Part shown: piece after piece, positions 7,345-46,023 of the stretch
Position numbering within the stretch: the first letter of the stretch is position 1
Layout: every line of letters starts with the position of its first letter
From: Candidatus Nanoarchaeia archaeon
GTDB lineage: Archaea > Nanobdellota > Nanobdellia > SCGC-AAA011-G17 > GW2011-AR17
Assembly (NCBI GenBank): GCA_041659245.1
Contig: JBAZYQ010000001.1
Span: 4,912-68,911, forward strand
Direction: 5' to 3'
DNA: 64,000 nt
The notes under the pieces: model-generated
The model's input: only the letters and a program-made list of their open reading frames with translations
What the model was told of the DNA's origin: nothing
The model's database searches: none
Translations under genes and position numbers: made by a program

Positions 7345-8793
7345 ATGGTAAAAATATTATTCTTGCAGCAGATATGGTTTCCTTTTCAGGGAGTCATGAC
7401 TTTATCGGCGGCATTAAAGCGGGCAGGACACGAAACTGCAGTTGCAGTCGGAAAAGACGAGAGACTTTTTAAAGAGATTTACGAATTTAAACCAGATATA
7501 ATTGCGTTTCCGGTTATTACCTCTTATAGAAGATTTATGATAGAAACTGTTAAAAAAATAAAGGCTAAGAATATTAAGGCTTTAATTGCAATTGGGGGAT
7601 ATGATGCCTCTTTTTTCCCGCAAATAATAGAGAAACTACCGATTAATGTTTTATGTATTGGAGAAGGAGACGATGCTTTTGTGGAATTTGCGAATGCAGT
7701 GAAAGAGGGGAAGGACTATTCCCATATTAAAAATTTATGGGTTAAGCATAACGGAAAAATTATTAAGAATCCGATAAGGTCTTTTAAAGACCTGAAGAAT
7801 AAGCCCTTCGACGACAGAGATATTTATAGGGATTATGACTCTTATTTTAAAGATATTGAATTTGAGCAAGTGATGGTTGGCAGGGGTTGCCCTTATTGCT
7901 GCTCTTATTGTTTTAATCATAAGTATAGGGAACTTTATGCACCTGTTGATAAGCAATATTGTGCTTTGAGGGATGTTGATAATGTCATAGAAGAATGCTT
8001 AATACTTAAAAATAAATATAAGGTTAAGAATTTATTCTTTAATGATAGTACTCTTGGTTATGATAAAAAATGGATATTAAAATTTCTTAAGGAATATCGG
8101 GAAAGGGTAAATATGCCTTTTTCTATTAATGCTTGTGCAAATGAGCTTACCGAAGATGTATGTAAGGCATTAGCTGATACAAAACAGTGCTATATTATAC
8201 GCTTGGGGCTTGAAACAGGAAATGAAGACCTCAGATTTAATGTTTTAAACAAGAAGATGACAAATAAACAATATATGGACGCAACTAACCTTTTGAAAAA
8301 ATATAAGCTTAAATATTCTATGGCTGTCATGTTTGGGCTTCCGGGAGAAACATTGGCAAATTCTTTTGAAACTCTGGATTTAGCTATTAAACTATCAGAT
8401 AAGAATACTGTTGTTGCTGTGAATATCTTTAAGCCATTTCCCAAACTGAATATAACCGAATATGGGGTTAAGCATGGGTTTTATAAATCTGAACTAATAA
8501 ATGATTCAAACTTGATAGGTGATAATGTTATGAATTTTTTTGAATGTTTTAGGCAAGATGAAGAAGGCAGGGTAATTTTGAATTTATCCAGATTATCCCA
8601 GATATATTTGCATTTCCCTATTCTAAGAAAACTAATCCGGACAAAATTAATATATCGGTCGGATAATGCGATTTATAGGGCAATATGGAAATTTAGCGAT
8701 TATTATTACACAAGCAGGCATCATATTAATGCGTCGCTGCCTTTCTTATTTAAGTATGTATTTAAGCATATGGGTAAAGGGGTAAGGGGATAA
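7345..8793 (+). CDS. Cobalamin-binding (class B) radical SAM enzyme, subfamily 1
   Basis: N-terminal B12-binding-like Rossmann segment (MVKILFLQ…IAFPVITS…IAIGG), then radical SAM cysteine motif RGCPYCCSYC (CxxxCxxC). Paralog of 34555..36090. Confidence 0.85.
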   Translation: MVKILFLQQIWFPFQGVMTLSAALKRAGHETAVAVGKDERLFKEIYEFKPDIIAFPVITSYRRFMIETVKKIKAKNIKALIAIGGYDASFFPQIIEKLPINVLCIGEGDDAFVEFANAVKEGKDYSHIKNLWVKHNGKIIKNPIRSFKDLKNKPFDDRDIYRDYDSYFKDIEFEQVMVGRGCPYCCSYCFNHKYRELYAPVDKQYCALRDVDNVIEECLILKNKYKVKNLFFNDSTLGYDKKWILKFLKEYRERVNMPFSINACANELTEDVCKALADTKQCYIIRLGLETGNEDLRFNVLNKKMTNKQYMDATNLLKKYKLKYSMAVMFGLPGETLANSFETLDLAIKLSDKNTVVAVNIFKPFPKLNITEYGVKHGFYKSELINDSNLIGDNVMNFFECFRQDEEGRVILNLSRLSQIYLHFPILRKLIRTKLIYRSDNAIYRAIWKFSDYYYTSRHHINASLPFLFKYVFKHMGKGVRG

Positions 8794-8824
8794 TCTTAAA
8801 TATAGTAATTGGCTTAATTAGGCT

Positions 8825-9445
8825 ATGGAATATGTTTTTGCCCTTAAACCGGAACCTTGTCTATATAATAAAATAAGAATATTGAAAACTTCTTTAAAAA
8901 AGCAAATGGGAAATCAGTTGTATATCAATGACGAACCGCATGTTACTCTCTGCGTATTGGATTTAGGCGATGATATATCTTTTAAAGATAAGCTCGACTT
9001 TATAATCGGTTCTTTTCGTTCTAAATTTAAAAAAATAAGATTTTCGATAAATGCATGGTCTATTTTTTCTGAGGATCCAGTTACTTCTTGTTCAACTTTA
9101 GTTTGTCGGCTCAATATGCCCGGCAATGTCCTGAATAATCTTCAATCTAAATTATTAAAGGAATTACAACTTTTTCGTACAAAAGACATTGCTTTGCGTT
9201 ATATAAAAGTTAAATTCAAAAATAAAGAATTCAATAACTGCTTGCAGCAATATGGGTATCCATTTATGGGCATGATATGGATACCGCATATAAGTATTGG
9301 CTCATTTGATAAAAAAGCCATTAATAAGGCAATTGAAAAAACAGAAAATAAGTGTCCTATTGGCCTCTATTCTTTTCAATCATTGATTGTTTATAAGCTG
9401 CTTCCATCTGATAAATTAGTTCCGCTATATAAATACCCTTTTTAG
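8825..9445 (+). CDS. 2H phosphoesterase superfamily protein (LigT / cyclic phosphodiesterase-like)
   Basis: Two H-x-T/S-x motifs in hydrophobic context: EPHVTLCVL and IPHISIGSF, about 105 aa apart, in a 206-aa protein. Confidence 0.5.
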   Translation: MEYVFALKPEPCLYNKIRILKTSLKKQMGNQLYINDEPHVTLCVLDLGDDISFKDKLDFIIGSFRSKFKKIRFSINAWSIFSEDPVTSCSTLVCRLNMPGNVLNNLQSKLLKELQLFRTKDIALRYIKVKFKNKEFNNCLQQYGYPFMGMIWIPHISIGSFDKKAINKAIEKTENKCPIGLYSFQSLIVYKLLPSDKLVPLYKYPF

Positions 9446-9448
9446 ATA

Positions 9449-11314
9449 TTAGCCTGTTAGATTATATACAATATACTCTCTATTTTTTGTGATTAGTGGA
9501 AATTCCAACTCTTTGTCTTTATTGAATATTGCATATGAAAAGTGGAACTTTTCTTTTAAGATTTGCAATTGCGTTTCATTGAGTGTAGTATAATACTCGT
9601 TAAGATGTTGATTTTCCCCATAGGTTCTGTCATCCAAGGTGAAATGGTTATTTGTTACATTTATAATACGGATATACCACTCTACCATATACCTGTCATC
9701 TAAAGGTATTGTTTTAAAATCAACAACAATAGCCCTATTGAGGCATAATCTCCATTGCTCTTCATCAGGCGGTGTTAAAAATATAGAATTTATAGGTGTA
9801 TTCTCTTGTGCAAAAAGGCAGATTTCTTTCATTTCCGGTTCAAAATCTGATCTTGCATTTAAAGGTGATATCTTAAGGTCAACAAACGAGATTATTACCA
9901 ATATTGCTATTAAAAGGAAAATAATCTTTTTGTTTTTAGGATATATAATCAAAGCTGAACATAAAAGGTAGATAAAAAAGATTATAAATGCTGGCACCAA
10001 TAGGCTTTTAATCAGGGATATTTTTTCTTGTGAAGTTAAATATCTTAGCAGGGTTGGAAATGTAAAATATAGCAATCCTCCCAAGATAATGGCAATGGCA
10101 ATGCCTGCAAAAAGAAAATATCCTCTGTTTATTTTAATATAATTGTTCTCTTTTAGTTTTATAAAAATAAATATTAATGCCAAGAGAATAAATAAATACC
10201 TTAAGACAAATGTGGCAAAAGAGAATATGAATAATAAAGCAAATAGTTTTAGGGGAATACTTTTGGCACTTGCCCATAGCTCATAAGCTTCATTAAAAAT
10301 TATAATATATGAGACCATGAACATGAAGGCAACAGCCCGGAACATATGAAATAAAGCAAAGGACGAGATTGGAATTATTTCTACAAATATATACCCAGTG
10401 ATAGCATATAAAATGCATATTATATAAGATACATAAAATACAGATTTTTGCTTGAAGTTATTATCTCTTAAAAATAACAATCCCAATACTACCAGAAGTA
10501 TGGTTGCAACAAAAAGACTAAAATCCCAAGAGCTTGGCAGGCAATGCCATGGATGCCTGAATCTGGCAACTATGTGGGTAATCAGGCTCTGGTCTGTAAA
10601 CCTTGAAGAAATTAGCAGGCCTTGGATAAGAGCAGGTGCACCTATTATTATAAAAGATATAGGTTTTATCAAGTAAATAAGATTTGATTTGGTAAAAATA
10701 GGTTTGCGTATGTTAATGAAAATATGTATAAAGTAGTATATTGAGAAACACATAAGTCCTGTAATTGTATGGAATATTGCTGCCAATCCTAATATGGCAA
10801 ATCCGCTTACAGTCTTATTCCGCAGTATAAGGTTTAAGGAAATAAGTGCAAAACACCATGAGATAATATTTGGGGTAAGGATGCTGTCAATAAGATTAAT
10901 GGAACCTAAAAATGATGTTTGATACGCCATGATAAAAAACAAGCTAAATAAGGCTGATTTTGCCTTATTTTTATAAAAATAATCTGCAAGATAGAATAAG
11001 GATAGGGCAATCCCCTGTGTAAACAATAAGGTTAATAAAAAGAAAGTAACTGACAGGCTGCCTATTATTTTATATGTGCAAAGGACAAAATAGTTAAATA
11101 TGGATCTAATATTAAATCCTTCCATTGAATTGGTATACCAGTCATTAACAAGGTAGCTTGTATCATTAATGCGGTACATATTTGGTAAATATTGATTATG
11201 GTTACCGATGCCATAACCGCTATATATGAAGATAAATAGAACTGTGACGCAGATAAAGCAAAATATCTCAAATCTGTATTTTTGCAGTATATTCTTAATA
11301 TAATCAGACTTCAT
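9449..11314 (-). CDS. Polytopic integral membrane protein (~14 TM) with C-terminal soluble domain; possible GT-C-like glycosyltransferase
   Basis: 621 aa. Hydrophobic helices throughout the first ~480 aa, then a hydrophilic C-terminal domain. No specific motif recognised. Confidence 0.5.
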   Translation of the reverse strand: MKSDYIKNILQKYRFEIFCFICVTVLFIFIYSGYGIGNHNQYLPNMYRINDTSYLVNDWYTNSMEGFNIRSIFNYFVLCTYKIIGSLSVTFFLLTLLFTQGIALSLFYLADYFYKNKAKSALFSLFFIMAYQTSFLGSINLIDSILTPNIISWCFALISLNLILRNKTVSGFAILGLAAIFHTITGLMCFSIYYFIHIFINIRKPIFTKSNLIYLIKPISFIIIGAPALIQGLLISSRFTDQSLITHIVARFRHPWHCLPSSWDFSLFVATILLVVLGLLFLRDNNFKQKSVFYVSYIICILYAITGYIFVEIIPISSFALFHMFRAVAFMFMVSYIIIFNEAYELWASAKSIPLKLFALLFIFSFATFVLRYLFILLALIFIFIKLKENNYIKINRGYFLFAGIAIAIILGGLLYFTFPTLLRYLTSQEKISLIKSLLVPAFIIFFIYLLCSALIIYPKNKKIIFLLIAILVIISFVDLKISPLNARSDFEPEMKEICLFAQENTPINSIFLTPPDEEQWRLCLNRAIVVDFKTIPLDDRYMVEWYIRIINVTNNHFTLDDRTYGENQHLNEYYTTLNETQLQILKEKFHFSYAIFNKDKELEFPLITKNREYIVYNLTG

Positions 11315-11436: not shown

Positions 11437-12876
11437 TCAACTGGACTTTTTCATGCTGCTAATCAATGCCATTGCCCCATTTATGTAAACCTTTACCCTG
11501 TCTTTTGAGCCAAGATATTTGAGCTGCCTCAATATAAATTTTGGGCGTAAATAGAAGCTTCTCATTGCATATTTCTGGAGCTCTTTGAGCTCTTCAGCAT
11601 TTCTGCCTTCAGGCATGTAAACAAGCTCCTTGTTTGACCATCCGGCCCATGTTTGATAATTTTCCCATTGGAATGACTTTAGTGTTTTGTCTTTCTTTGT
11701 GATTTCATATAATTTTGTTCCAGGATATGGCACTGTTATAGTGAATTGCACCCAGTCAGGGTCAATTTCCTTTGAAAAACTGATTGTCTGCATGCTTTCT
11801 TCCTTTGTTTCAGAAGGCAAACCGAGCATAAAGAATGCTTTTATCTCGATTCCTGCTTCCCTTGTCCATTTGAATGCATCCCTCACCTGCTGCAGCGTTA
11901 TTCCCTTATCTATCAAATTCAGCAACCTCTGGTTTCCGCTTTCAACGCCGTAATGCATGCTCCAGCAGCCTGCTTTTTTCATTATTTTCAGCAGTTCTCT
12001 GTCAACAAGATTTACTCTTGTCATGCAGCTCCATTCAAATCTCTTGTTTAATCCCAGCCGCATAATCTCATTGCATAATTCAATAACGTGCCCTCTGTCT
12101 ACTGTAAAAGTATCGTCCCTAAATATTATGTCTTTTGCGCCGTAATCATTCAGAAGAGTGTTTATTTCCTCAATTATTCTTTTCACAGAATGCTTTCTGT
12201 AAACTCTTCCGGAAACTTTTGAGCAGTATGCGCATTTGAAAGGGCATCCTCTTGAGGCAAGTATAAGATAGCTTGGAAGCCTTTTGAAGTATGTTGGCGC
12301 CGGAGTATATTTAGCCATTGGCAAAAGATCCCTTGCGGGCAATGGAATGGAATCAATGTCTGTTTTTATCTCACGCGCAGGATTTATCGTTATTTTGCCG
12401 TTATTTCTGTATGCTATGCCTTTTATGCTTTCAAAATGCTTTTTTTCTGAAATTGCGTTAAGCAATTCCACTATTGTGTCTTCAGCTTCCCCGAAGCAGG
12501 CAAAGTCGATGTTCTTGTTTTCTTCGAGGGTTATTTCAGGAAAAACAGTGACGTGAGGACCGCCGGCAATAATCTTTGCTTTTGGAAGTGTCTCTTTTAC
12601 AAGGCTGATTATTTCCTTTGCGCGAAGATACATTGGTGTAAGTATAGACACGCCCACAATATCAGGATTTGATTCAATAATACGTTTTTTTAATTCTTCA
12701 GTGCTGATGCGCACAGCGGCAATGTCCAATATTTCAACGTCAGCCGCTTTTGCTTCTCTTATTACCGCAGCAAGATAAGCCAATCCCATTGGCTCGCACA
12801 TAGGCCCCACCTTGCCAAGATATTTACCGTATCTTTCATCAAGCGTAAGCCCTGGCTGAATAAGCATAATTTTCAT
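11437..12876 (-). CDS. Cobalamin-binding (class B) radical SAM enzyme, subfamily 2
   Basis: MKIMLIQPG…MGLAYLAAV…IVGVS B12-binding-like N-terminus; SRGCPFKCAYCS CxxxCxxC. Start moved to the internal ATG at 12876 (the track extends to 12933). Confidence 0.85.
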   Translation of the reverse strand: MKIMLIQPGLTLDERYGKYLGKVGPMCEPMGLAYLAAVIREAKAADVEILDIAAVRISTEELKKRIIESNPDIVGVSILTPMYLRAKEIISLVKETLPKAKIIAGGPHVTVFPEITLEENKNIDFACFGEAEDTIVELLNAISEKKHFESIKGIAYRNNGKITINPAREIKTDIDSIPLPARDLLPMAKYTPAPTYFKRLPSYLILASRGCPFKCAYCSKVSGRVYRKHSVKRIIEEINTLLNDYGAKDIIFRDDTFTVDRGHVIELCNEIMRLGLNKRFEWSCMTRVNLVDRELLKIMKKAGCWSMHYGVESGNQRLLNLIDKGITLQQVRDAFKWTREAGIEIKAFFMLGLPSETKEESMQTISFSKEIDPDWVQFTITVPYPGTKLYEITKKDKTLKSFQWENYQTWAGWSNKELVYMPEGRNAEELKELQKYAMRSFYLRPKFILRQLKYLGSKDRVKVYINGAMALISSMKKSS

Positions 12877-13894: not shown

Positions 13895-15064
13895 TTATAA
13901 ACCTTTTGCAGAGTACATCTTAAATTCCCCAATCTGTTTTATCAGGCTGAGATTAAGCATATGCTTGGTATAAATATAGTCAACATGTTCACTATAGCTT
14001 TCCAGATTGCCGACTATAATTTTATCATTAAGCCAAAAGCCAATTATACTATTTGTTCTATTCCCTATATCGCGTTCATATATGCCTGTTTGGTTCAATT
14101 TTGAGATAATAGCCTCATCACGTTCATCTAGCAGATATACGGAATATTGCGGATCATATTGATTCATAAACATGCCTATTTGTACTTGGGGTCCTGCTGC
14201 CCAATATACCCTGGTATTGTATATTGTTACTGAATAAGCCAACAGTGAGATTAGAATAAAGAAAATAATTGAAAAATAAAATATGCGCTTGGTATGAGGG
14301 TATATCATCTTGTATAGTATATAAAATATCAATCCCAATATGGCTGCAAAAATAATCTGTGATATGAAAGAGGAATTAAATACTAATCTTATTAGTTCGG
14401 CTAAAATTCCCAGCCAGGACAAGGATAAATTATTAACCGGAAACAAAGGAAATAAATATAAGACTGAAGAGCAAAGAAGTAATGATACGATAATGAAAAT
14501 AGATTTCATATTAATTTTTGTAGGCATCTTTTCAAAGGCAATTATTCCTATTATTATGATTAAAGGCAATACTGCTTCGATATACCTTCCTATAGGTCTG
14601 CCTAATAACCAATTAGAATAGATTCCAACTTGTGCAGCTGCATTATGATTTGAGGCAATAAGCAAGGTTACAAATATGCATAGACCTGAAATAACCAACA
14701 AATAAGGGTATTTAGCTTTTGCTTTCAGCAGATTTAAAAATCCAATGGAATAAATGAAACCAGAACTTATTATCAAATAGCCGAGAGATATTAAAAACCA
14801 AAGCAGAATTGTGCCTATTTTCAGTCCATGGCTTGTTTCAAGACTATAGTACCCTCCTGAAACTGAATTAATTGAAAATCCAAATAAAAGCCCGTTTCGT
14901 ATCAGCCATAAAACGATGAATGGGATGGCTGAGATAATAAATACAAATGTTTTTTTGGCATTTAATTTAAAATCTTTGTCTTCCCAGGCCTTAAACGTAT
15001 AAGCCCCAATACCTACAAAAAGCAAAGCAATGCCGCTTACTTTTGTTAAGTATGATAAGCCCAC
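13895..15064 (-). CDS. GT-C (PMT/ArnT-like) glycosyltransferase, C-terminal portion; likely one gene with 15106..15600 interrupted by a frameshift
   Basis: Polytopic membrane ORF with no ATG start (GTG in the track). Its frame stays open upstream to 15236, overlapping the end of the upstream ORF in another frame. Confidence 0.5.
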   Translation of the reverse strand: MGLSYLTKVSGIALLFVGIGAYTFKAWEDKDFKLNAKKTFVFIISAIPFIVLWLIRNGLLFGFSINSVSGGYYSLETSHGLKIGTILLWFLISLGYLIISSGFIYSIGFLNLLKAKAKYPYLLVISGLCIFVTLLIASNHNAAAQVGIYSNWLLGRPIGRYIEAVLPLIIIIGIIAFEKMPTKINMKSIFIIVSLLLCSSVLYLFPLFPVNNLSLSWLGILAELIRLVFNSSFISQIIFAAILGLIFYILYKMIYPHTKRIFYFSIIFFILISLLAYSVTIYNTRVYWAAGPQVQIGMFMNQYDPQYSVYLLDERDEAIISKLNQTGIYERDIGNRTNSIIGFWLNDKIIVGNLESYSEHVDYIYTKHMLNLSLIKQIGEFKMYSAKGL

Positions 15065-15105
15065 AGATAGCCCTGCAATAATCGGCCATTTGTATCCTTT
15101 TGAGG

Positions 15106-15600
15106 TTACTGCTTTGTAAATTGTAAAAACTGAAAAAGGAATAAAGGATAATATAGGCTTTCGCTCATTATAAAAGGGGCAAATGCTAGATTTGAAGGCA
15201 ATACTGATACAACAACAGCCGTAAGAAATGCTGATTTATCCTCAAGAAATTCTTTTGCAAGAAGCCATGCGGGAATTATTATTAGTGAAGATAATAGTGC
15301 ATTAAGAAATTTCATAAAAATGTAAACATATTGCATATCCTTAAATTTATATGAAATTGAGATTAGAATGGGGTAAAGCGGAGGAAATTGCGCAGAAGGC
15401 ACACCATGTTCTGTAAATTCCTGGTCAAAATAGAAGCTCCTTGCTATTTTTGCATATGAATCTTCATCGCTATATCCTGATATTGTGGGCACAAATGAGG
15501 AAAACACAACTTTTACAATAACCAATGCTAGAAAAATCAACAAAAGCCGTTTTGTATACATTTTCATTAGACTTAAATCAGTTATACTTTTTATAAACAT
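15106..15600 (-). CDS. GT-C (PMT/ArnT-like) glycosyltransferase, N-terminal portion
   Basis: TM1, then YSDEDSYAKIARSF: the DE/DxD first-loop motif of the PMT/ArnT/AglB GT-C families. Confidence 0.55.
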   Translation of the reverse strand: MFIKSITDLSLMKMYTKRLLLIFLALVIVKVVFSSFVPTISGYSDEDSYAKIARSFYFDQEFTEHGVPSAQFPPLYPILISISYKFKDMQYVYIFMKFLNALLSSLIIIPAWLLAKEFLEDKSAFLTAVVVSVLPSNLAFAPFIMSESLYYPLFLFQFLQFTKQ

Positions 15601-18216: not shown

Positions 18217-19284
18217 ATGCTTGTCTTCGAAAGATTTATAACTCATCCTGTCTACACAAATAAAATGCAATACGCTTATACTCCTGAGCCAGGCATATGT
18301 CCATTATGCGGCTCAAACAATGCAAAACTATTATACGAGATAGACTCAGAGGATGTAGCAAAAAATTTTTTAGTTAAAGAGAGAGATCCTCAAAAATTTG
18401 AACAGTTGGTAACAAATGTAAACAACACCTGGAAAAGTACAACTTGTAAAGTTATACAATGTGATAACTGCGGATTATGCTATACAAATCCTTTTGTTGC
18501 CGGAGACAATGAATTTTATAACTTAATATACGGCGGAACCGGCAAATCCCGATGGAAATGGGAGTTTGAAGTAACTTTCCAGAAAATAAAAGAAATTATG
18601 GGGGGAATTAATCCTAATGAAACTACTCTCTTAGAAATTGGCGCAGCAGACGGAACTTTCATTAAAAAAATATCTCCTTATTTGATACCTAAGCAAAATA
18701 TACTCTGTACTGATTATTCAGAAAATTGCAAAAAGTTAATTGAGCAATATGGAATAAAATGTGAAACAATTGATATAACCAAAACAAAAAATCCAAAATT
18801 TAAGAACAAATTTTCAATACTATGCATGTTTCAGGTGCTTGAGCATATGGACTCAATTGATTATTTTTTTAAAGCAGCATATTTCCTCACAAAGCCCAAT
18901 GCAGACATATTTATAGCAGTGCCAAATGATAAGATGATTGCAATACAAGAGCTTTATGGTGAACTGCTTGACGAACCGCCTCATCATACTTCCAGATGGA
19001 ATAAAAAATGCTTTGAGATAGCCTCGCAAAAATATGGATTCAAACTATTGGACTACAAGATTGAACCCTGCAGATTAATCCCTGCATTTAAACAGATTAT
19101 AATCTATAAATATAAACGAAAGCGCCAAATTAGGGGAAATATCTATTGCAAATCAGCATTGATAAAGAACAATAGATTAAGAAGAATAGCTGAAATTATG
19201 CTTGTAGCCTATCTTTCGATTACGAGCTTAACCATTCTACCTAAACTTCAGGGGAATTCCCAATGGGTTCATCTTAGAAAATAA
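18217..19284 (+). CDS. SAM-dependent methyltransferase with N-terminal Cys4 zinc-ribbon (Methyltransf_13-like)
   Basis: CPLCGS…CDNCGLCYTNPF zinc ribbon, then LLEIGAADGTF class I MTase motif I. An alternative start is at 18265. Confidence 0.7.
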   Translation: MLVFERFITHPVYTNKMQYAYTPEPGICPLCGSNNAKLLYEIDSEDVAKNFLVKERDPQKFEQLVTNVNNTWKSTTCKVIQCDNCGLCYTNPFVAGDNEFYNLIYGGTGKSRWKWEFEVTFQKIKEIMGGINPNETTLLEIGAADGTFIKKISPYLIPKQNILCTDYSENCKKLIEQYGIKCETIDITKTKNPKFKNKFSILCMFQVLEHMDSIDYFFKAAYFLTKPNADIFIAVPNDKMIAIQELYGELLDEPPHHTSRWNKKCFEIASQKYGFKLLDYKIEPCRLIPAFKQIIIYKYKRKRQIRGNIYCKSALIKNNRLRRIAEIMLVAYLSITSLTILPKLQGNSQWVHLRK

Positions 19285-20923: not shown

Positions 20924-22435
20924 GTGCCTAATTGTATGACAGAGCAGGCAATACTGAATAAAATATCCAAAGGCGCAACTCTACTTTTAATAGGGATGGT
21001 TATTTCCAAGGTATTTTCATACATTTATAGGGTTATTATTGCCCGTTATTTGGGAGCAGATGTATATGGATTATTCAGTATTGGATTAGCGGTTATAGGC
21101 ATCTTAGTTAGTCTCTCACTTGTCGGGCTCCCTCAGGGAATATTGAGGTATGTATCTTATTATAGCGGGAAACGCGATGAAAAATCCATTCATGCAATAA
21201 TAAATAATGCTTTTAAGATTATAATCCCCCTCTCGCTATTATTTACATTGTTGCTTTTTATTTTTGCCAAATGGATTTCTCTTTATTTTTTCCATGACCC
21301 TTCCCTGGTTAACATGCTGAAATTAATGTCTTTTGCAATACCTCTTACTGTAATCGCAATAGGCATAGAATACTCATTCCAGGCATTTCAAAAAATAAAC
21401 TATATAGTTATAGCTAAAACTATTGTGGGACCTGTCTCAAAAGTAACAATTTCACTCATAGTACTAATTATGGGCTACAAGCTTATGGGCATAGCTTTTG
21501 CTTATATCTTCTCGCTATTTATTTCCGCTTTATTGATGGCATATTTTCTTAAAAAGATAGTTTCTTTTAGGAAAATAGCCTTAGCGCCGCCTATTTTTTA
21601 CAAGCAATTATTATATTTTTCACTTCCATTAATGTTTTCGGAATTATTTATTTCGCTTTTGACTTGGAGCGATACATTAATTTTAGGGTATTTTGTTCCT
21701 GCTGTACAAGTAGGTATATATAATGCTGCAGTACCTACTGCATATCTTATTTTTACAATACCCGTTGCATTAATAACTTTATTTATGCCAACAATAAGCG
21801 GTATGTATGCAAGGAAAGAGGATTTTAGCAATCTCTATGATACTATAAATAAATGGATGTTTTTGGTTGGTGTGCCTTCTGTGTTGGTTTTAGGATTATA
21901 TTCCAAACAGATACTTTCAATATTATTTGGTAAAATATTCGTTGAAGGCTATTTTGTATTAATTCTGATTGCAATAAGCTTCTTTATATATTCTCTCATG
22001 CTTACATCAGAATCAATACTTATTATAATGAAAAAGACAAAATTAATATTGTTCAATAGTTTTTTAACAGTTTTGCTAAATATTATTATGAACCTGTTGC
22101 TTATACCCAAATATGGGCTTATGGGGGCGGCAATTGCAACTGCTTCTGCATTTTTATTGACGAGTATTCTTGTTGCGATAGAAACATATTATCTCACAAA
22201 ATTGTTCCCGTTAAAATTAGGCTATATCAAGTGTATAATCTCTGCTGCTATACCTTTTACTCTTATAGTTTATCTTAATACTTACATAAATACCCATGTG
22301 CTATTTGGGCTCATCTTTTTGGCTTTAATATATCTTGTGTTGTATATAATACTATTAAGGCTTACACATGCTTTAGGCGCAGAGGAAATAAGTCTTATCA
22401 AAAGTGCATGGCAAAAGGTCAAGACTAAATTTTAA
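20924..22435 (+). CDS. Polysaccharide biosynthesis protein / oligosaccharide flippase (Wzx, MOP superfamily-like)
   Basis: ~12-14 TM, 503 aa; layout and N-terminal KGATLLLIGMVISKVFSYIYRVIIARYLG typical of Wzx-like flippases. Confidence 0.7.
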   Translation: MPNCMTEQAILNKISKGATLLLIGMVISKVFSYIYRVIIARYLGADVYGLFSIGLAVIGILVSLSLVGLPQGILRYVSYYSGKRDEKSIHAIINNAFKIIIPLSLLFTLLLFIFAKWISLYFFHDPSLVNMLKLMSFAIPLTVIAIGIEYSFQAFQKINYIVIAKTIVGPVSKVTISLIVLIMGYKLMGIAFAYIFSLFISALLMAYFLKKIVSFRKIALAPPIFYKQLLYFSLPLMFSELFISLLTWSDTLILGYFVPAVQVGIYNAAVPTAYLIFTIPVALITLFMPTISGMYARKEDFSNLYDTINKWMFLVGVPSVLVLGLYSKQILSILFGKIFVEGYFVLILIAISFFIYSLMLTSESILIIMKKTKLILFNSFLTVLLNIIMNLLLIPKYGLMGAAIATASAFLLTSILVAIETYYLTKLFPLKLGYIKCIISAAIPFTLIVYLNTYINTHVLFGLIFLALIYLVLYIILLRLTHALGAEEISLIKSAWQKVKTKF

Positions 22436-24108: not shown

Positions 24109-24789
24109 ATGCAGACTAAAAATATCCAATATTACAATAACAAATATTTTGAATGGCAGAAGACAGCGGGAAAGCTTGGGGGAATACTTGATTTATTCAA
24201 ATTTAAGGAATTCATAATGCCTACAGATAAAGTTATAGACTTTGGTTGTGGCGGCGGTTATTTGCTTGCAAATATCAATTGTGCGGAAAAGAAGGGCATA
24301 GAAATTAATGAAAACGCATGGCCATTTGCAAAGCAGAACAAAGTCGATGTGGTTAAAAGTGCGGAAGATATCCAGGATAATTGGGCTGATGTGATTATAT
24401 CTAATCATGCTTTGGAGCACACGCTAAATCCTTATGGGGAATTAAGAAAATTATATCCTAAATTGAAAAAAGGAGGCAGGATTGTGTTTGTTCTGCCGCA
24501 TGAAATTAGGAGCAAATATATTCCGGGCGATGTTAACCAGCATCTTTATACGTGGAGTCCTATGTGTGCGGGAAATCTATTTACCACGGCAGGCTATAAG
24601 GTTGAAAGGGTTGAAACAATAAAATATCAGTGGCCGCCTTATTATCAGCGTGAAATATTGACTTGCCTGGGCAAAGGGACATTTGATTTGCTGTCTAGGA
24701 TATATGCAAGAGTTTATCCTTTTTTAATAACGGCAAAAACTGTAAGAAATATATACCATTTACAAGTAAGGGTTATTGCAAGAAAATAA
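24109..24789 (+). CDS. Class I SAM-dependent methyltransferase
   Basis: VIDFGCGGGYLL motif I; 226 aa. Confidence 0.7.
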   Translation: MQTKNIQYYNNKYFEWQKTAGKLGGILDLFKFKEFIMPTDKVIDFGCGGGYLLANINCAEKKGIEINENAWPFAKQNKVDVVKSAEDIQDNWADVIISNHALEHTLNPYGELRKLYPKLKKGGRIVFVLPHEIRSKYIPGDVNQHLYTWSPMCAGNLFTTAGYKVERVETIKYQWPPYYQREILTCLGKGTFDLLSRIYARVYPFLITAKTVRNIYHLQVRVIARK

Positions 24790-25975: not shown

Positions 25976-26367
25976 TTTGTTATGTCTACTCTGATTACAT
26001 CTTTTTCATACCCATTGTCTGTCCTTGAGAAGTCATGGAAATCTAGAAACTCAAAATCTTCCAAGGCAATTATCGTATGAATCACTTTTGGCGGTATGCT
26101 AATGAAATCCCCTTCTTTTATTATGTTCTTTTCTGTTTTTGCATTGGGATCTTCCGAATCCTTGCTTAGGAATTCAGCTTTTCCTTTTAATACATAATTG
26201 AACTGTTTCGCCTTGTTGTGGTAATGGTTTCCCCTTACAGCTCCTTTTTTTGAGGTTATCAGCCCAATATGCAATATATTTTCATCATCCAGAATATCAT
26301 GGATAGCTCCGCGCTGGTCTTCAAATGCCGGTTTTATATGCTTTATGCTTATTTTTTTGTTTTCCAT
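25972..26367 (-). CDS. Cupin-fold sugar 3,4-ketoisomerase-like protein (FdtA/WxcM C-terminal domain-like)
   Basis: 131-aa cupin with RGNHYH…VIHTI His-rich metal/active-site motifs. Stop overlaps the aminotransferase start by 4 bp. Confidence 0.55.
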   Translation of the reverse strand: MENKKISIKHIKPAFEDQRGAIHDILDDENILHIGLITSKKGAVRGNHYHNKAKQFNYVLKGKAEFLSKDSEDPNAKTEKNIIKEGDFISIPPKVIHTIIALEDFEFLDFHDFSRTDNGYEKDVIRVDITK

Positions 26368-26371
26368 AGTT

Positions 26372-27607
26372 TCACTCCAGTATTTTTGGTTTTGGTATTG
26401 GTATTATGAACTTGCAGCCGTTTTTTCTGTGAGCTTCAAGGTTCTTTATTATTTCTTCAGCAAAGTTCCAAGGCAGGATTATTCCATAATCCGGCTTGTC
26501 TTCAAGTATTTTTTGGTCAGGATATATCGCAAGATGCAATCCTGGGCTGAATCTTCCAATTTTTAATGTTGATTTTTCTGTCAGATACTCAATAATTCCG
26601 TTGTTAAGCGCACAATAATTAAGCATGGTATTGCCTTTTGCAGGCGCCCCTATTCCCACTATTTTTTTACCCTGTTTCTTAAGCTCGATCAGTATAGATA
26701 CCAGCTCTAATCTTTGTTTCCTGACTTCTTCTGCAACTTTATTCAGCTTTTCAAGTGAGTACACTTTTGCTTCCTCTTCCAGATTGACCAGCTCATTAAC
26801 AATATGGGCTATTTCTCGCTTTCCTTTTCTTCCAATGAAAACTCTGATTGAACCCCCGTGTATTCCTGAGCGGTAAACATCAAAAATTTCCATTCCAAAT
26901 TTATTGAAAAAAGGGATGAGCGGCTTTATCGAGAGATATGACAAATGTTGGTGATATATTGTGTCGTACTCATTGTTTTCAACCAGATTAATAAGATAAG
27001 GAGATTCAAAAATAAATACGCCATCATCTGTAAGGAGCAAATCAATTGCTTTCATAATATCATCAAGGTCATCTATATGCGCAAAGACATTTGTTCCGGT
27101 TATTGCATGGGCTTTGCCTCTTTCTGTTAATATTTTTGCTGCTAATTTTTCAGTAAACAGGCTGCAAATTGTTTCTATGCCTCTGTCATTTGCAATTTTT
27201 GCAACAATAGGTGCAGGATCAACCCCCAGTACTTTCATTCCATTGCTTTTGAATCCTTCCAGCAATACGCCCACATTGCTTCCAATATCCACCAGAAATG
27301 AGCCTCTTTTAAGGCCTATTTTTTGGCAGATGGAATTTGCCATTTCAGAATAATGCACCTTGCCTGTTTCAGTTATAGAAGATTCATACATATATTCGCC
27401 CTGATAAAGAACCTTGGGCGGGACAACATAATCTAGCTGATGAAACCCGCAATTAAGGCAGATTTGCACCCTTAACGGATAAAATGCCTCTTCCTCATTT
27501 AATTCTTCTTTTCTCAGAAAATGATCAGAATGCGGGTGAAAACCCAAATCCAGATAGGTTTTAAGTTTCTTTCCCTTGCATAAACGACATTCTGTTTTTA
27601 GTGGCAT
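26372..27607 (-). CDS. NDP-hexose C-methyltransferase-like (TylC3 family: Zn-ribbon + class I MTase + C-MT C-terminal domain)
   Basis: N-terminal CRLCKG…CLNCGFHQL zinc ribbon, central LVDIGSNVGVLL motif I, ~130-aa C-terminal extension; 411 aa. Confidence 0.65.
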   Translation of the reverse strand: MPLKTECRLCKGKKLKTYLDLGFHPHSDHFLRKEELNEEEAFYPLRVQICLNCGFHQLDYVVPPKVLYQGEYMYESSITETGKVHYSEMANSICQKIGLKRGSFLVDIGSNVGVLLEGFKSNGMKVLGVDPAPIVAKIANDRGIETICSLFTEKLAAKILTERGKAHAITGTNVFAHIDDLDDIMKAIDLLLTDDGVFIFESPYLINLVENNEYDTIYHQHLSYLSIKPLIPFFNKFGMEIFDVYRSGIHGGSIRVFIGRKGKREIAHIVNELVNLEEEAKVYSLEKLNKVAEEVRKQRLELVSILIELKKQGKKIVGIGAPAKGNTMLNYCALNNGIIEYLTEKSTLKIGRFSPGLHLAIYPDQKILEDKPDYGIILPWNFAEEIIKNLEAHRKNGCKFIIPIPKPKILE

Positions 27608-27676
27608 TACGTCTAAACTGTTTTTTGTTTATTAATAAGCTTTATGGATATCGTGCCGCTATACAGTCCTATAAGC

Positions 27677-28462
27677 CTACAGCTTTGTTTTAGGCTTTTT
27701 AACAATGCATAGAATAGAAACGCCAAAAGGCAGATTAATCCTTTTTAAAACATTTGATTCAAGCAAAAAAATTGATTTGAAGAATTTATTAACAAATGGT
27801 GAAATATTGTCTATATCTGAAGAGACGGGCTTATTCTTATTTATCAAATTATCTATTTTTCTCATTACAAATACAAATGGAAATAAGAATGTATTGAAAT
27901 AAGAAGATTTTTTTATAATAAATCCGCAGTCACTCAATTTTCTGCATATCTCTTTCTTTGTATATCTTTCTCTTACATGGGCTGCAATATCGTGCCTACT
28001 ATGCATTGCAGGGCATGCTGCATCAGTCAAAATCAACAAGCCGTCCGGCTTTAATACCCTATATATTTCTCTTATTGCTTCGTTATCATCCTTAATCTGC
28101 TTATGATACAAAACATCAAGGCAGGTTACAATGTCAAAAAATTCGGATTTAAACGGCATTTTTATTACAGAACCCTTAAACAAATTCTTAAGCCCTCTCG
28201 CTTTGCAAAATTTAAGGGCCGCAGGCATTATGTCAAGTCCGTAAGTGTCATATCCTCTTGATTTTAAATCATAAAGCACCATGCCTGTGCCGCATCCGAC
28301 ATCAAGAAGCTTTAATCCTTTGCTGTTTTTGGGCAGGTTGTCATTTACTATTTTGCGCTTTACAATAAACCACCAATAGGCTTTTTCGAGTTTATACATT
28401 TTTTCATATTCCTGTAATTCCATTTTAGTTGCGCGCCTCGCTGGTTTTATTTTTAAAAACAA
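27677..28462 (-). CDS. Class I SAM-dependent methyltransferase
   Basis: LLDVGCGTGMVLYDL motif I, LILTD motif. Likely true start near 28423 (MELQEYEKMY). Confidence 0.75.
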   Translation of the reverse strand: MFLKIKPARRATKMELQEYEKMYKLEKAYWWFIVKRKIVNDNLPKNSKGLKLLDVGCGTGMVLYDLKSRGYDTYGLDIMPAALKFCKARGLKNLFKGSVIKMPFKSEFFDIVTCLDVLYHKQIKDDNEAIREIYRVLKPDGLLILTDAACPAMHSRHDIAAHVRERYTKKEICRKLSDCGFIIKKSSYFNTFLFPFVFVMRKIDNLINKNKPVSSDIDNISPFVNKFFKSIFLLESNVLKRINLPFGVSILCIVKKPKTKL

Positions 28463-28471
28463 TTAAATAGA

Positions 28472-29191
28472 TTATTTATTTGGTCTGAATCTTAATCTTA
28501 TGATTGTTGTCCCTAAATTCCATGCATGCCCTATAAGGGTTTTAAATGAGTCTGCTGTCTTGGTTTCACCGAGAACTCTGTCATAGGTAATGTAAGGGAT
28601 ATCTTTTATCTTGAATCCCATTTTATAAGCTTCATATAGGAACTGTATGCAATATTCTGCATAATTGCCTTTTAAGTTTATATGTTTGAATACGTCCTTT
28701 TTTACTGCAACAAATCCGGTTGTATAATCTGTAATCTTGGGTGTGAGCAGCAGCATTGCAAATTGATTTATTGCCCAGCTGTATGCAATTCTTGGTATTG
28801 TTCTTGTATCTTTTCCGCCTTTAATATATCTTGATGCAGCGGCAATATCATATCCTTCATTAATTATTACGTTCAAGAGTTTAGGTAATAAATGAGGCGG
28901 ATGAGATAAATCGCAATCCATCCAGACAACTATTTCGCCTTTGGCTTCGTGTATGCCCCTTTGAATTGCGGTTACAAGCCCCCTTTCCTTGGTTCTTTTA
29001 ATAACGCGCACATTTGGTTTGTCGAGCTTCTCAACCGTTCTTGCTGTACCGTCAGGGGAATTATCATCAACAACTATTATCTCAAAAGGTAGTTTTACGT
29101 AATGTTCTATTTCTTTTATAACCAGGGGTACATTTTCGGTTTCATTGTAAGTGGGCAAAATAACAGAAACTTTAATTTGTTTGGGATTCAT
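28472..29191 (-). CDS. GT2 polyprenol-phosphate sugar synthase (Dpm1/ArnC/GtrB-like)
   Basis: VSVILPTYNETENV…IVVDDNSPDGT…DCDLSH. Confidence 0.85.
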   Translation of the reverse strand: MNPKQIKVSVILPTYNETENVPLVIKEIEHYVKLPFEIIVVDDNSPDGTARTVEKLDKPNVRVIKRTKERGLVTAIQRGIHEAKGEIVVWMDCDLSHPPHLLPKLLNVIINEGYDIAAASRYIKGGKDTRTIPRIAYSWAINQFAMLLLTPKITDYTTGFVAVKKDVFKHINLKGNYAEYCIQFLYEAYKMGFKIKDIPYITYDRVLGETKTADSFKTLIGHAWNLGTTIIRLRFRPNK

Positions 29192-36090: not shown

Positions 36091-36099
36091 TTTTATTCT

Positions 36100-36750
36100 T
36101 TACTCTTTTTCTGCAACAATAATCATCTCTTTTTGGTTGCGCAGATATCCGCTAGATTTCAGAACAGCCATTGCAAAAGGCAATGGGAGTTTATAAAATA
36201 GAGAAAATCCAAAGGCATAATTGAATTTGGCAATCTTCACTTTGAATCCCACCGTATGCAATAAAGCCCATATTGCTGAGACTGTCCAGGCATACAAATG
36301 CCATGCTTTAAAATCAGGGGCTTTTATGCCTTCATTTTTGTTAGCCGGAAGTACAAGCACAAGTTTGCCTCCTTTTTTCAATACGCGAAGAAATTCTCTT
36401 AAATAATAAGCCGGCTCTTCCAAATGTTCAAGCACATGACAGCAAATTATACCCTCAATTGAACCTGAATCTATCTTTTTTATATCTTTTATTACATTTA
36501 TCCCTTTCTTTTTACATTGTTTTATTGCAAAATTGCTTATATCAATACCTGTTGAATTTTTCTTATGCATGAAAATATTTTGCCCCATGCCGCAGCCAAA
36601 TTCAATAAACTTTCCGTTTTTGCTGTTTTCAAAATACTTCCAATAAATTTTGTCAGCATATCTGGCACGAAACAGATAATATTTGATGTCACTAAGAAGC
36701 TTTTTATGGAACATACTATGGTAACTTTCTTCATATTTATTATTTTTCAT
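36100..36750 (-). CDS. Class I SAM-dependent methyltransferase
   Basis: FIEFGCGMGQNI motif I, LVLVLP motif; 216 aa. Confidence 0.75.
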   Translation of the reverse strand: MKNNKYEESYHSMFHKKLLSDIKYYLFRARYADKIYWKYFENSKNGKFIEFGCGMGQNIFMHKKNSTGIDISNFAIKQCKKKGINVIKDIKKIDSGSIEGIICCHVLEHLEEPAYYLREFLRVLKKGGKLVLVLPANKNEGIKAPDFKAWHLYAWTVSAIWALLHTVGFKVKIAKFNYAFGFSLFYKLPLPFAMAVLKSSGYLRNQKEMIIVAEKE

Positions 36751-36876
36751 CTTATTATTTGAGTTGAGTATCTTTAAATGCTTTTCGTGGATATGTACAT
36801 CTACTTAAACCCGATTTAAGTTCTGTGTTGCTTAATGACAAATATTTATAAATCGTAGACATCTCCCTTTTAGGGT

Positions 36877-38691: not shown

Positions 38692-38738
38692 CACTTATCT
38701 CCAATAAATTAATATTTAAAAATATATCTTAAGCATAT

Positions 38739-40154
38739 TCACTTTAATATAAACTTAATAAAGCCCATTCCGCTGTTCAATACTTTCTTTCTAATCTTCG
38801 GATGCTTTAGTTTCCCCAGATATTTCACTATAATCCTTGGTCTTATATAAAATGCCATCCATGCCCTTTTATAATATTTCTCAAGCTCTTCCTTTGTAAG
38901 CCCGTGCGGCACGAAATTATCTGCATTAAACATATTTGTTTTTTTCCAATCCTTATCAAATGTTCCATATTTATCTGCCAAATTATATGCGGCTGCTCCG
39001 GGGAGAGGCGTGAAACAGGTAATATGGAAATCAGTAAGCGGGATTTTTCTTATAAATCTCAGCGTTTCTTCAATTGTTTCCTTTGTTTCACCGAAATTAC
39101 CCAGCATAAAGAGCCCCTTGACATCCATTCCTGCCTTCCTTGCCATTTTTATTGCTTCTTCAATTTGTTCTTTTTTTACTCCTTTGTTAAGTATATCAAG
39201 AATCTTTTGTGAGCCGCTTTCACACCCAAAGTTTATCTGCCAGCATCCTGCTTTATTCATTAGCTTTAGCAGTTCCGCATCAATAGTGTCCACGCGCCCC
39301 AGGCATGACCATGTTATATCAATCTTTTCGTTGATTATCCTTTCGCATATCTCTTTTAACCTTTTTTTGAACAGTAAAAAATTATCATCTTCAATGAAAA
39401 GCTCTTTGATACCATAATCCTGCTGCAATTTTTTAATCATTCTGATTACATAATCTGCGCTATAACATCGACATAAGTTTCCAAAAACACTCCTGTCGCA
39501 AAATATGCACTGCCCTGTGCATCCTCTTGAAGTGATAAGCAATGTTGCGGGATACCTGTGCATTGTATCTGCAGCGGGCTGGTAGTATTTAACAAGATTA
39601 GGCAGCATATCCCATGCGGGAAATGGTAGCCTATCCAAATCCATAATCGGCTTTCTTTTGCCTGTGAATATAATCTTGTCTTTTTCACGAATTATGAGCC
39701 CCTGGATTTTGTCGATACTTTTTCCTTCATCAAGAGTATCAAGCAGTTCCAGGATTGTATCTTCAGCTTCCCCTACCACGCCTATTTCAAAGACAGGGAA
39801 TATATTCATTGTTTGTTCAGGCACTGCAGTTATATGCGGTCCGCCAAGAATTATCCTTATTTTAGAATTAGCTTTATGCACTCCTTCTGCAACTTCTGCT
39901 GCAGTATAAACAGACATTGTTGTGGAAGTGATTCCCAGATAATCCGGTTTTTCCGCTATAATTGCATCTATTGTTTCTTTAATTGTCATTTTTAGGGCAA
40001 GGGCATCAATTATTTTTGTGTTATACCCCTTATCTTTTGTAACTGCCGCAAGAATAGCGAGTCCCAAAGGTGGTAGTTCGCTTCCTGCATCTCCCAACTC
40101 GTTATATAATTCGCTTAAGTTTTGAGGCGGATTAAGAAAAACTATTTTGCTCAT
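38739..40154 (-). CDS. Cobalamin-binding (class B) radical SAM enzyme, subfamily 2
   Basis: B12-binding-like N-terminus (PPLGLAILAAV…YLGITSTT…ILGGPH); SRGCTGQCIFCDRS CxxxCxxC. Start overlaps the stop of 40151..40888 by 4 bp. Confidence 0.85.
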   Translation of the reverse strand: MSKIVFLNPPQNLSELYNELGDAGSELPPLGLAILAAVTKDKGYNTKIIDALALKMTIKETIDAIIAEKPDYLGITSTTMSVYTAAEVAEGVHKANSKIRIILGGPHITAVPEQTMNIFPVFEIGVVGEAEDTILELLDTLDEGKSIDKIQGLIIREKDKIIFTGKRKPIMDLDRLPFPAWDMLPNLVKYYQPAADTMHRYPATLLITSRGCTGQCIFCDRSVFGNLCRCYSADYVIRMIKKLQQDYGIKELFIEDDNFLLFKKRLKEICERIINEKIDITWSCLGRVDTIDAELLKLMNKAGCWQINFGCESGSQKILDILNKGVKKEQIEEAIKMARKAGMDVKGLFMLGNFGETKETIEETLRFIRKIPLTDFHITCFTPLPGAAAYNLADKYGTFDKDWKKTNMFNADNFVPHGLTKEELEKYYKRAWMAFYIRPRIIVKYLGKLKHPKIRKKVLNSGMGFIKFILK

Positions 40155-46017: not shown

Positions 46018-46023
46018 AATAAG

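Follow-up and report, generated by a model that had tools for sequence, protein, structure and literature searches.

Predicted cobalamin-binding radical SAM enzymes as putative glycan-tailoring enzymes at an AglB locus of a DPANN archaeon

Cobalamin-binding (class B) radical S-adenosylmethionine (SAM) enzymes are known almost entirely from the biosynthesis of antibiotics, cofactors, lipids, and peptides that are made on the ribosome and modified after translation (RiPPs), and we know of none that has been tied experimentally to the assembly of prokaryotic protein or surface glycans. Most of the characterized members are methylases, and sugar carbons are methylated by GenK, GenD1, and, in moenomycin biosynthesis, MoeK5 (PMC9204698). 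HpnJ and Cds have been proposed to contract lipid-linked hexoses (PMC13459092). In the three-component glycosylation systems, lipid-linked monosaccharides are made and sometimes modified in the cytoplasm, then flipped, and then transferred by a GT-C glycosyltransferase (PMC11127046). Reviews of the enzyme class describe no member working in glycan assembly (PMC12931638, PMC9204698), and full-text literature searches returned no paper on B12-type radical SAM (B12-rSAM) enzymes in prokaryotic glycan loci. Here we describe 64,000 nucleotides (the window) of contig JBAZYQ010000001.1 from 'Candidatus Nanoarchaeia', in which six genes for predicted B12-rSAM enzymes, named R1 to R6, lie within a glycan-biosynthesis island around aglB. 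We propose, with a probability of roughly 0.55, that the six are soluble tailoring enzymes of surface-glycan or N-glycan biosynthesis that act on cytoplasmic sugars, C-methylation being our leading guess for the reaction.

The island covers window positions 1-53.7 kb in one unbroken run (roughly 53 kb, 36% G+C), and the six genes sum to 8.8 kb inside 33 kb of it. The source is a metagenome-assembled genome of the DPANN archaea, in agreement with the first-pass annotation, which had guessed a small AT-rich archaeon from the letters alone. In the NCBI deposit of the window proteins (MFA5887095 to MFA5887137, locus tag WC852_), the six are labelled only 'radical SAM protein'. Pfam and NCBIfam scans showed that the neighborhood had been described accurately as aglB with Dpm1-like family 2 glycosyltransferases (GT2), GT-C proteins, flippases, and six methyltransferases. 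The island encodes seven GT2 enzymes, several of which resemble dolichyl- or polyprenyl-phosphate sugar synthases (AglJ, DPM, PpgS, and ArnC models), two GT4 enzymes, several multi-pass GT-C-like proteins, and three flippase-type components (Wzx, a GtrA domain, and a PF03706 flippase-like protein). Five of the methyltransferases are generic class I enzymes and one is a TylC3-type sugar C-methyltransferase. UDP-glucose dehydrogenase, GDP-mannose 4,6-dehydratase, a heptose-type branch, and a DegT/cupin/TylC3-type branch are also encoded.

The link to glycosylation, which had been proposed for this locus only, was found to be strong and conserved across genomes and domains of life. In all of the 18 contexts examined, a small and non-randomly sampled set in which the window is counted among the R2 loci, relatives of R1, R2, and R5 lay near GT2, GT4, GT-C, or flippase-like genes. 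For the R2 family, a Dpm1-like GT2, GT4, or PMT_2 GT-C gene was present within three genes in all ten loci (the window, L002, L003, L005, L006, L007 from Hyphomicrobiales, L008 from Desulfobacter, L009, L091 from Pacebacteria, and L092 from Scalindua), and a class I methyltransferase usually accompanied them. The R5 family was flanked by AglB, PMT_2/TMEM260, GT2, GT4, or GT9 in five of five loci, and R1 relatives had an adjoining GtrA, methyltransferase, or nucleotidyltransferase gene and a GT2 nearby in three of three. The 62.8-kb contig L002, whose R2 orthologue is 71% identical, carries in order an R4-like gene, Wzx, GT2 (57% identity), R2, a PF03706 flippase-like gene, GT-C (53%), an R6-methyltransferase fusion (76%), R5 (90%), and AglB (58%). 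Orthologues of the GT2 at 12996-13871 (57-63% identical) adjoin the R2 orthologues in L002 and L006 or lie one gene away; an intact 574-amino-acid (aa) PMT_2 protein is encoded beside the R2 orthologues in L003 and L006, and the orthologue of the GT-C protein at 36877-38691 (53%) directly precedes the R6-methyltransferase fusion in L002. Upstream of R1, the 291-aa protein, the GT2, and the 203-aa protein recur together with R1 in L088 (57%, 41%, 51%, and 60% identity for the four, R1 last), and in L089 (Elusimicrobiota) a GtrA gene and the R1 orthologue share an overlap of 4 bp. Members of the PF03706 family adjoin rSAM orthologues or lie near them in L002, L003, L085, L088, L091, and L092. 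Several B12-rSAM genes per glycan locus were also found elsewhere, four in L002 and three each in L006 and L091. Thus, of the earlier claim that six copies at an archaeal glycosylation locus were undescribed, the novelty of the setting stood, but the arrangement is shared with other genomes: a known enzyme class is found in an undescribed pathway setting, as a widespread cross-domain cassette of which the window is an unusually rich example. In L091, the block consists of GT2, a methyltransferase, an R2-like rSAM, a GATase, a second rSAM, and a flippase-like gene. A 72-aa ferredoxin (5452-5670) and a nitroreductase-family protein (6633-7289) are encoded inside this block and might supply the radical SAM enzymes with electrons.

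Gene fusions agreed with this link. R2-like proteins fused to a class I methyltransferase were found four times (P0098, P0103, P0116, and P0120), and a methyltransferase-rSAM fusion was found in Pacebacteria. R3-like proteins were fused to GT4 (P0454), to GT2 and GT4 together (P0458, 1,232 aa), and to a methyltransferase (P0499 and P0502). Because radical SAM and glycosyltransferase domains share one polypeptide, we regard these proteins as direct evidence, at the level of sequence, for a role of this branch of the radical SAM superfamily in glycan assembly. Chance clustering of rSAM with glycosylation genes was rejected in view of the conserved synteny and the fusions. Among the R3 relatives P0405, P0433, P0454, P0458, P0499, and P0502, the methyltransferase was fused at either the N- or the C-terminus; one of the six was a tandem double rSAM and one was interrupted by a LAGLIDADG intein. 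A 632-aa fusion of GT2 with a radical SAM/SPASM protein, which is of a second, non-B12 kind, was also seen in L089 (4448-6346), three genes from the R1 orthologue.

The first-pass annotation had read the six as paralogues in two subfamilies. The shared architecture was borne out, whereas close paralogy and the division in two were not: pairwise identity was 20-35%, R2 and R6 being the closest pair (35%), R3 and R4 were loosely allied with these two, and R1 and R5 stood apart. Given this low identity and the separate orthologue series of four of the genes, the six are better described, from their sequences, as an assembly of six separate old families than as a local expansion. Relatives of R1 (45-73% identical) occurred in DPANN archaea, Omnitrophica, Elusimicrobiota, Planctomycetota, and Deltaproteobacteria, and relatives of R2 (41-95%) in Nanoarchaeota, Woesearchaeota, Pacebacteria (candidate phyla radiation, CPR), Scalindua, Nitrospiraceae, WOR-3, Desulfobacter, and Hyphomicrobiales; a scan of a genome collection with the R2 alignment yielded at least five loci whose identity was 41% or higher. 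The best 120 homologues of R5 all matched it over the full length with 53% identity or more, and those with a named source were without exception DPANN. The R6 orthologue in L002 (76%) is a 700-aa protein with a C-terminal class I methyltransferase, and the R4 counterpart there (35%) adjoins Wzx. The best relatives of R3 and R4 were 35-45% identical. For R3, the nearest cluster representatives did not exceed 45%, though 5,072 proteins scored below 1e-30, and a metagenome scan gave one distant match only (24% identity), so that a close relative for comparison is lacking for R3, and the evidence on its context is limited to the window and to fused proteins among relatives of 33-45% identity. Recent local duplication was rejected in view of the identities within the set and of orthologues of R1, R2, R5, and R6 elsewhere at 45-93%. 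R5 was 90% identical between the window and L002 (16383-17918), where the nearby AglB, GT-C, and GT2 were 58%, 53%, and 57% identical; R5 and R2 have a G+C content of 0.41 compared with an island average of 0.36. The higher conservation of R5 than of its neighbors, together with its higher G+C, indicates unusually strong constraint or recent transfer.

All six open reading frames (ORFs) reported by the first-pass annotation were present at the coordinates that it gave, and the CxxxCxxC strings that it quoted were found verbatim in the six proteins, the cysteines being invariant in a six-way alignment. Its call of a B12-binding segment followed by a radical SAM domain was confirmed for every protein against Pfam gathering thresholds: PF02310 scored 45.8-91.9 bits (threshold 32.1) and PF04055 64.8-93.2 bits (threshold 29.5). 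The longest ORF of R2 extends to 12933; the boundary at 12876 chosen in the annotation is correct, because homologues cover the protein only from Met20 and the deposited record (MFA5887098.1) is the 479-aa form. The longest ORF of R4 starts at GTG 22404 and would overlap the Wzx gene (end 22435), which makes ATG 22488 the plausible start. No transmembrane (TM) helices were predicted in five of the six enzymes, R4 alone having one hydrophobic helix at its C-terminus.

In the order that recurs among the loci, a Dpm1/AglJ-like GT2 is followed by a B12-rSAM, which may be accompanied by a methyltransferase, and then by a flippase-like protein and a GT-C. In the window, this order is represented by at least two sets, namely the GT2 at 12996-13871 with R2 and the split PMT_2 GT-C at 13895-15600, and the GT2 at 40151-40888 with R6 and the GT-C at 36877-38691. 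Also present in the window are a pentulose-phosphate-linked block around R1, a run of the 355-aa methyltransferase (MT355), R3, Wzx, R4, and the 226-aa methyltransferase (MT226), and a group with R5 near AglB. In our proposal, the GT2 would mount a sugar on dolichyl or polyprenyl phosphate at the cytoplasmic side, and the B12-rSAM would modify this lipid-linked sugar, the growing lipid-linked oligosaccharide, or a nucleotide sugar in the cytoplasm. Wzx, GtrA, or the PF03706 flippase-like protein would then flip the modified sugar, and a GT-C enzyme or AglB would transfer it to a surface protein or glycan. The scheme amounts to a three-component side-branch system into which a radical step has been inserted. 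Its weakest step is the chemistry, in which a 5'-deoxyadenosyl radical would abstract hydrogen and methylcobalamin would methylate the unactivated sugar carbon, as for GenK, GenD1, and MoeK5; adjacent or fused class I methyltransferases would supply O- or N-methyl groups. C-methylation is considered the most likely reaction because most characterized members are methylases and these three methylate sugars (PMC9204698). More tentatively, and with somewhat less than even confidence, we extend the proposal to the whole cross-domain cassette (Dpm1-like GT2, B12-rSAM, class I methyltransferase, flippase, and GT-C), which may install C-methylated or carbocyclic/ring-contracted surface sugars at the polyprenyl-phosphate-linked stage in DPANN, CPR, and other anaerobes.

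Several observations weigh against the proposal. None of the six reached a curated NCBIfam cut-off, so the reaction is not fixed by family, and the best-scoring models for R2 and R6 (HpnJ, BchE, and ApyD) describe non-methylases. The class I and TylC3-type methyltransferases could explain all methyl groups without radical methylation. We infer the substrate stage, lipid-linked or nucleotide-linked, from gene order alone, and one GT-C gene that accompanies R2 is interrupted by a frameshift in this assembly. The top Foldseek match of the R2 model is AprD4, which binds no cobalamin (PMC12931638). We also infer that the organism would need to import or otherwise acquire cobalamin; no cobalamin uptake gene was found within the window, nor did a six-frame scan of the window detect the four-cysteine ferredoxin motif CxxCxxCxxxC.

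Among the curated models, HpnJ (TIGR03471, cut-off 577.6 bits) was the best model for R2 (247.5 bits, residues 48-480) and R6 (216.6 bits), near full length; it gave 127.1 bits for R3, 120.2 for R4, 98.2 for R5, and 82.9 for R1. BchE (TIGR02026, cut-off 481.35) scored best with R2 (228.9 bits) and was the top model for R3 (141 bits) and R4 (124 bits). For R5, the best model was the lipid/ladderane family TIGR04072 (100 bits, cut-off 360), which was also among the four nearly tied models that headed the R1 results, with HpnJ first. The HpnR model gave at most 132 bits (cut-off 650). TIGR04295 'B12_rSAM_oligo', an uncharacterized B12-rSAM family defined from an oligosaccharide-type gene cassette, scored 27-101 bits compared with a cut-off of 400, and none of the six is a member. 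By these scores none of the six belongs to a known curated family, and GenK, GenD1, MoeK5, Fom3, Cds, and GrsA are set beside them by description only.

These results give weight to a reading that we judge less probable than the proposal but treat as a serious rival, and as the most probable of the alternatives: the six may be glycan-tailoring B12-rSAM enzymes some or all of which do not methylate. They would instead carry out ring contraction (of the carbocyclic or oxetane type, with HpnJ, Cds, and OxsB as models), BchE-like oxidation, epimerization, or dehydration, and the class I methyltransferase would cap an exposed hydroxyl or amine. The ranking of HpnJ for R2 (247 bits) and R6 (217 bits), followed by the non-methylases BchE and ApyD, is as this reading expects. 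The order GT2, rSAM, and PF03706 flippase-like protein recalls HpnI, HpnJ, and HpnL, and the PF03706 protein of the window weakly matches HpnL (23.6 bits), presumably itself a member of that family. That a separate methyltransferase is constantly paired with the rSAM would be easiest to understand if the rSAM were no methylase, and contraction of a lipid-linked hexose is what has been proposed for HpnJ and Cds (PMC13459092). However, the scores amount to only some 40% of the cut-offs for HpnJ and BchE, and the adjacent GT2 enzymes are AglJ/Dpm1/PpgS-like, the sole hopanoid-associated GT2 model to appear being HpnB (23-40 bits). No hopanoid genes (hpnH/I/K or shc) were found in the window. In similarity networks HpnJ groups with Fom3 and MoeK5, which are methylases (PMC9204698), so ring contraction does not follow from a likeness to HpnJ; most of the characterized members of the family are methylases.

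The question of whether the N-terminal domain binds cobalamin was examined through motifs, alignments, and models. The contact motifs GxSxL-like, GG, and GE have been defined from OxsB, TsrM, and TokK (PMC9204698). In the six-way alignment, GG was invariant and GE was present in five proteins, with GQ in R4; the GxSxL-like motif was clear in R2 (GVSIL), R3 (GISAM), and R5 (GISAY) and degenerate in R1, R4, and R6. In family alignments of 32 R2-family and 36 R1-family sequences, GG and GE were invariant or at least 90% conserved. PDB sequence searches aligned the N-terminal domains with the cobalamin-bound enzymes TokK, OxsB, TsrM, CysS, and MgmA (9ccb). AlphaFold2 models of R2 and R1 had predicted local distance difference test scores (pLDDT) of 91 and 92, and the nearest solved folds for both were the class I B12-rSAM enzymes MgmA, CysS, TsrM, TokK, and OxsB, plus AprD4; for R1, the top Foldseek matches were MgmA, CysS, AprD4, TsrM, and TokK. 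The fold searches place R2 and R1 in the class I B12-rSAM fold and do not separate methylases, non-methylases, and AprD4. Overall, sequence and model evidence favors cobalamin binding by the six enzymes.

The same searches bear on an improbable alternative, in which the enzymes would produce deoxy sugars as radical SAM dehydratases or deoxygenases without need of cobalamin, with a Rossmann domain that binds none, as in AprD4 and ArsL. Both of these share the architecture and sit within B12-rSAM similarity networks, yet work without cobalamin (PMC12931638), so architecture alone is no proof of cobalamin use. AprD4 (6fd2), which acts on a sugar substrate, paromamine, was the best PDB sequence match for R2, R3, and R6 as well as the first structural match of the R2 model. 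Its sequence alignment was, however, confined to the radical SAM core (R2 residues 173-393), whereas the N-terminal domains aligned with cobalamin-bound enzymes; PF02310 reached 92 bits, GG and GE are conserved in the six and across their families, and the AprD4 model (NF033070) gave at most 124.3 bits compared with a cut-off of 500.

A lipid target is less probable again. The enzymes would then methylate, cyclize, or cross-link the dolichol/polyprenol carrier or scavenged archaeal membrane lipids, like GrsA/B, GDGT-MAS, and HpnP/R. Many lipid-modifying rSAM enzymes are class B (PMC13459092), TIGR04072 was the best model for R5 and one of the four for R1, and GDGT-MAS (7tol) matched R1. The first-pass annotation had itself asked about strong homology to a lipid-modifying family, and what was found is weak: the 7tol match was restricted to R1 and to 70 residues (E = 8e-5), and TIGR04072 gave 77-149 bits compared with 360. 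No lipid-synthesis gene was present in the window or in the related loci examined, where the neighbors were always sugar-activating enzymes and glycosyltransferases; the fusions go to GT2 and GT4 domains, and bacteria without archaeal lipids carry the same families. Least probable of all is a peptide or protein target, that is, RiPP-type or S-layer C-methylases merely located in a glycan island, for although R2 moderately matched ApyD (200 bits) and rSAM_ocin_1 (118 bits), both models stayed under their cut-offs (750 and 282), Pfam scans of the window genes (a few ORFs at the 3' end left out) gave no precursor-peptide, RiPP-recognition, or peptidase gene, and the synteny and fusions are with glycosyltransferases.

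The features of the island are collected in Table 1. AglB carries its catalytic motif WWDYG at residues 612-616 and the N-terminal DxD motif as DVD at residues 69-71. The two ORFs of the PMT_2 GT-C match one 574-aa protein, and tblastn placed the change of frame near 15130-15136, beside T-runs; either the gene is a true pseudogene or the assembly is in error here. The genes around R1 suggest a sugar branch derived from pentulose phosphate, and in L088 the R1 orthologue is instead found in the company of an FGGY kinase, an AP_endonuc_2 protein, and a class II aldolase. The TylC3-type class I sugar C-methyltransferase (PF08421 and PF08484), the cupin, and DegT are grouped at 24878-27607 (minus strand), and because of them a conventional C-methyl/amino nucleoside diphosphate (NDP)-sugar route exists alongside the radical SAM enzymes. 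Positions 41095-51701 hold a GDP-heptose or 6-deoxyheptose-like branch with a GDP-mannose 4,6-dehydratase (459 bits, cut-off 415); its HddA-like GHMP kinase, GmhA-like SIS protein, GmhB-like HAD phosphatase, and sugar-1-phosphate nucleotidyltransferase all scored under their equivalog cut-offs. The class I methyltransferases had generic NCBIfam matches only. Weak scores of the CpaM model (cut-off 180) for 27677-28462 (48 bits) and 33771-34433 (29.5 bits) probably reflect generic similarity and were not used as evidence. The rRNA operon beyond the island has a G+C content of about 50%, compared with about 36% for the island, and no Rfam match to 5S rRNA was found within the window.

Table 1. 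Features of the glycan island and its border, in window coordinates. MT, class I SAM methyltransferase; TM, transmembrane.
Feature	Position	Strand	Remarks
AraD-type L-ribulose-5-phosphate 4-epimerase	1559-2272	+	NCBIfam subfamily 336 bits, cut-off 257
NTP-transferase-like protein, 291 aa	2226-3101	+	upstream of R1
GT2	3098-3829	+	upstream of R1
203-aa protein	3810-4421	+	upstream of R1
GtrA TM, ribulose-phosphate-3-epimerase-like, and histidine-phosphatase fusion, 974 aa	4414-7338	+	directly upstream of R1
R1, predicted B12-binding and radical SAM, 482 aa	7345..8793	+	PF02310 45.8 bits, PF04055 64.8 bits; motif GCPYCCSYC
12-TM membrane protein with DUF6798	9449..11314	-	PF20604 58.5 bits; between R1 block and R2; 12 hydrophobic segments; candidate GT-C or polymerase
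R2, predicted B12-binding and radical SAM, 479 aa from Met20 of longest ORF	11437..12876	-	PF02310 91.9 bits, PF04055 85.8 bits
Dpm1/AglJ-like GT2, two C-terminal TM helices	12996..13871	-	PF00535; AglJ model 161 bits, dolichyl-P-hexose transferase 122, PpgS 107; immediately upstream of R2
PMT_2-type GT-C split by frameshift	13895..15600	-	ORFs 15106-15600 (N-terminal) and 13895-15064 (C-terminal)
MT, 355 aa (MT355)	18217..19284	+	PF13489, PF08242; upstream of R3
R3, predicted B12-binding and radical SAM, 475 aa	19440..20867	+	PF02310 and PF04055; in operon-like run MT355-R3-Wzx-R4-MT226
Wzx/MATE-type flippase	20924..22435	+	PF01943 123.6 bits; 13 hydrophobic segments; between R3 and R4
R4, predicted B12-binding and radical SAM, 507 aa	22488..24011	+	PF02310 and PF04055; one C-terminal hydrophobic helix
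MT, 226 aa (MT226)	24109..24789	+	Pfam scan; downstream of R4
Sugar branch: DegT aminotransferase, cupin, TylC3-type C-methyltransferase, MT (261 aa), Dpm1-like GT2	24878..29191	-	Pfam/NCBIfam
AglB/STT3 oligosaccharyltransferase, 903 aa	30957..33668	-	PF02516 76.3 bits and PF21436; 13 hydrophobic segments
MT, 220 aa	33771..34433	-	Pfam scan; between AglB and R5
R5, predicted B12-binding and radical SAM, 511 aa	34555..36090	+	PF02310 and PF04055; two genes from AglB, divergent transcription
MT, 216 aa (MT216)	36100..36750	-	Pfam scan; downstream of R5
GT-C-like membrane protein, 604 aa	36877..38691	+	PF02366 PMT 22.9 bits (threshold 22.7); Agl23-family match; eight hydrophobic segments; between MT216 and R6
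R6, predicted B12-binding and radical SAM, 471 aa	38739..40154	-	PF02310 and PF04055; start overlaps upstream GT2 stop by 4 bp
GT2, 245 aa, polyprenyl-P-sugar-synthase-like	40151..40888	-	PF00535 100 bits; best models PpgS, ArnC, AglJ; translationally coupled to R6
Flippase-like PF03706 membrane protein	52745..53671	-	PF03706 115.6 bits; TIGR00374 66.3 bits (cut-off 43.2); end of island
16S-tRNA(Ala, UGC)-23S operon	54058-58853		directly abuts glycan island

If lipid-linked sugars are modified as we propose, a new chemical step would be added to the GT2, flippase, and GT-C logic of extracytoplasmic glycosylation. The proposal predicts C-methyl or carbocyclic sugars, which have so far not been sought in archaeal glycans. 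It would represent a new class of glycan modification and would give a small archaeon a heavily and unusually modified coat that depends on cobalamin acquired from hosts or neighbors, and on reducing power. As these enzymes take up about 9 kb in a genome of presumably around 1 Mb, the modified coat would matter to the cell, perhaps in host attachment or virus evasion. The R1, R2, and R5 families are well conserved and offer orthologue series tractable for reconstitution.

One of the closest described enzymes is HpnJ, the best curated model for R2 and R6. Like the six, it consists of a B12-binding and a radical SAM domain in about 470 aa, and its known or proposed substrate is a lipid-attached sugar installed by a GT2 (PMC9204698, PMC13459092). 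The window enzymes differ in score (217-247 bits compared with 577.6), in the window's lack of a hopanoid context, in AglJ/Dpm1/PpgS-like GT2 partners, and in an archaeal host. MoeK5 and Fom3, the network neighbors of HpnJ, are compared with the six by description only, as are GenK and GenD1, which share with the proposed reaction the cobalamin-dependent radical methylation of unactivated sugar carbons (PMC9204698); the latter two are, however, secondary-metabolite enzymes that act on free pseudo-oligosaccharides. AprD4, a radical SAM 1,2-diol dehydratase, resembles R2, R3, and R6 in the radical SAM core and R2 in fold, and it uses a sugar substrate, but it works without cobalamin (PMC12931638), and its sequence similarity is limited to that core. 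MgmA/QCMT, CysS, TokK, TsrM, and OxsB have the same two-domain fold (Foldseek E 1e-17 to 1e-28, TM-score 0.60-0.76), whereas identity is 14-20% and their substrates are peptides, carbapenems, tryptophan, and nucleotides; the extra domains of TokK, CysS, and OxsB are missing in the window enzymes. At the level of the pathway, GtrA/B/C, ArnC/ArnT, and the pentofuranose GT136 system likewise combine genes for a Dpm1-like GT2, a flippase, and a GT-C, and in the pentofuranose system an epimerase modifies the lipid-linked monosaccharide before export (PMC11127046). The same three-component gene set is present in the window, with predicted biochemical roles. None of the three-component systems has been described with a radical SAM step, whereas in the window the GT2 and GT-C genes have a B12-rSAM gene next to them, in many cases together with one for a class I methyltransferase.

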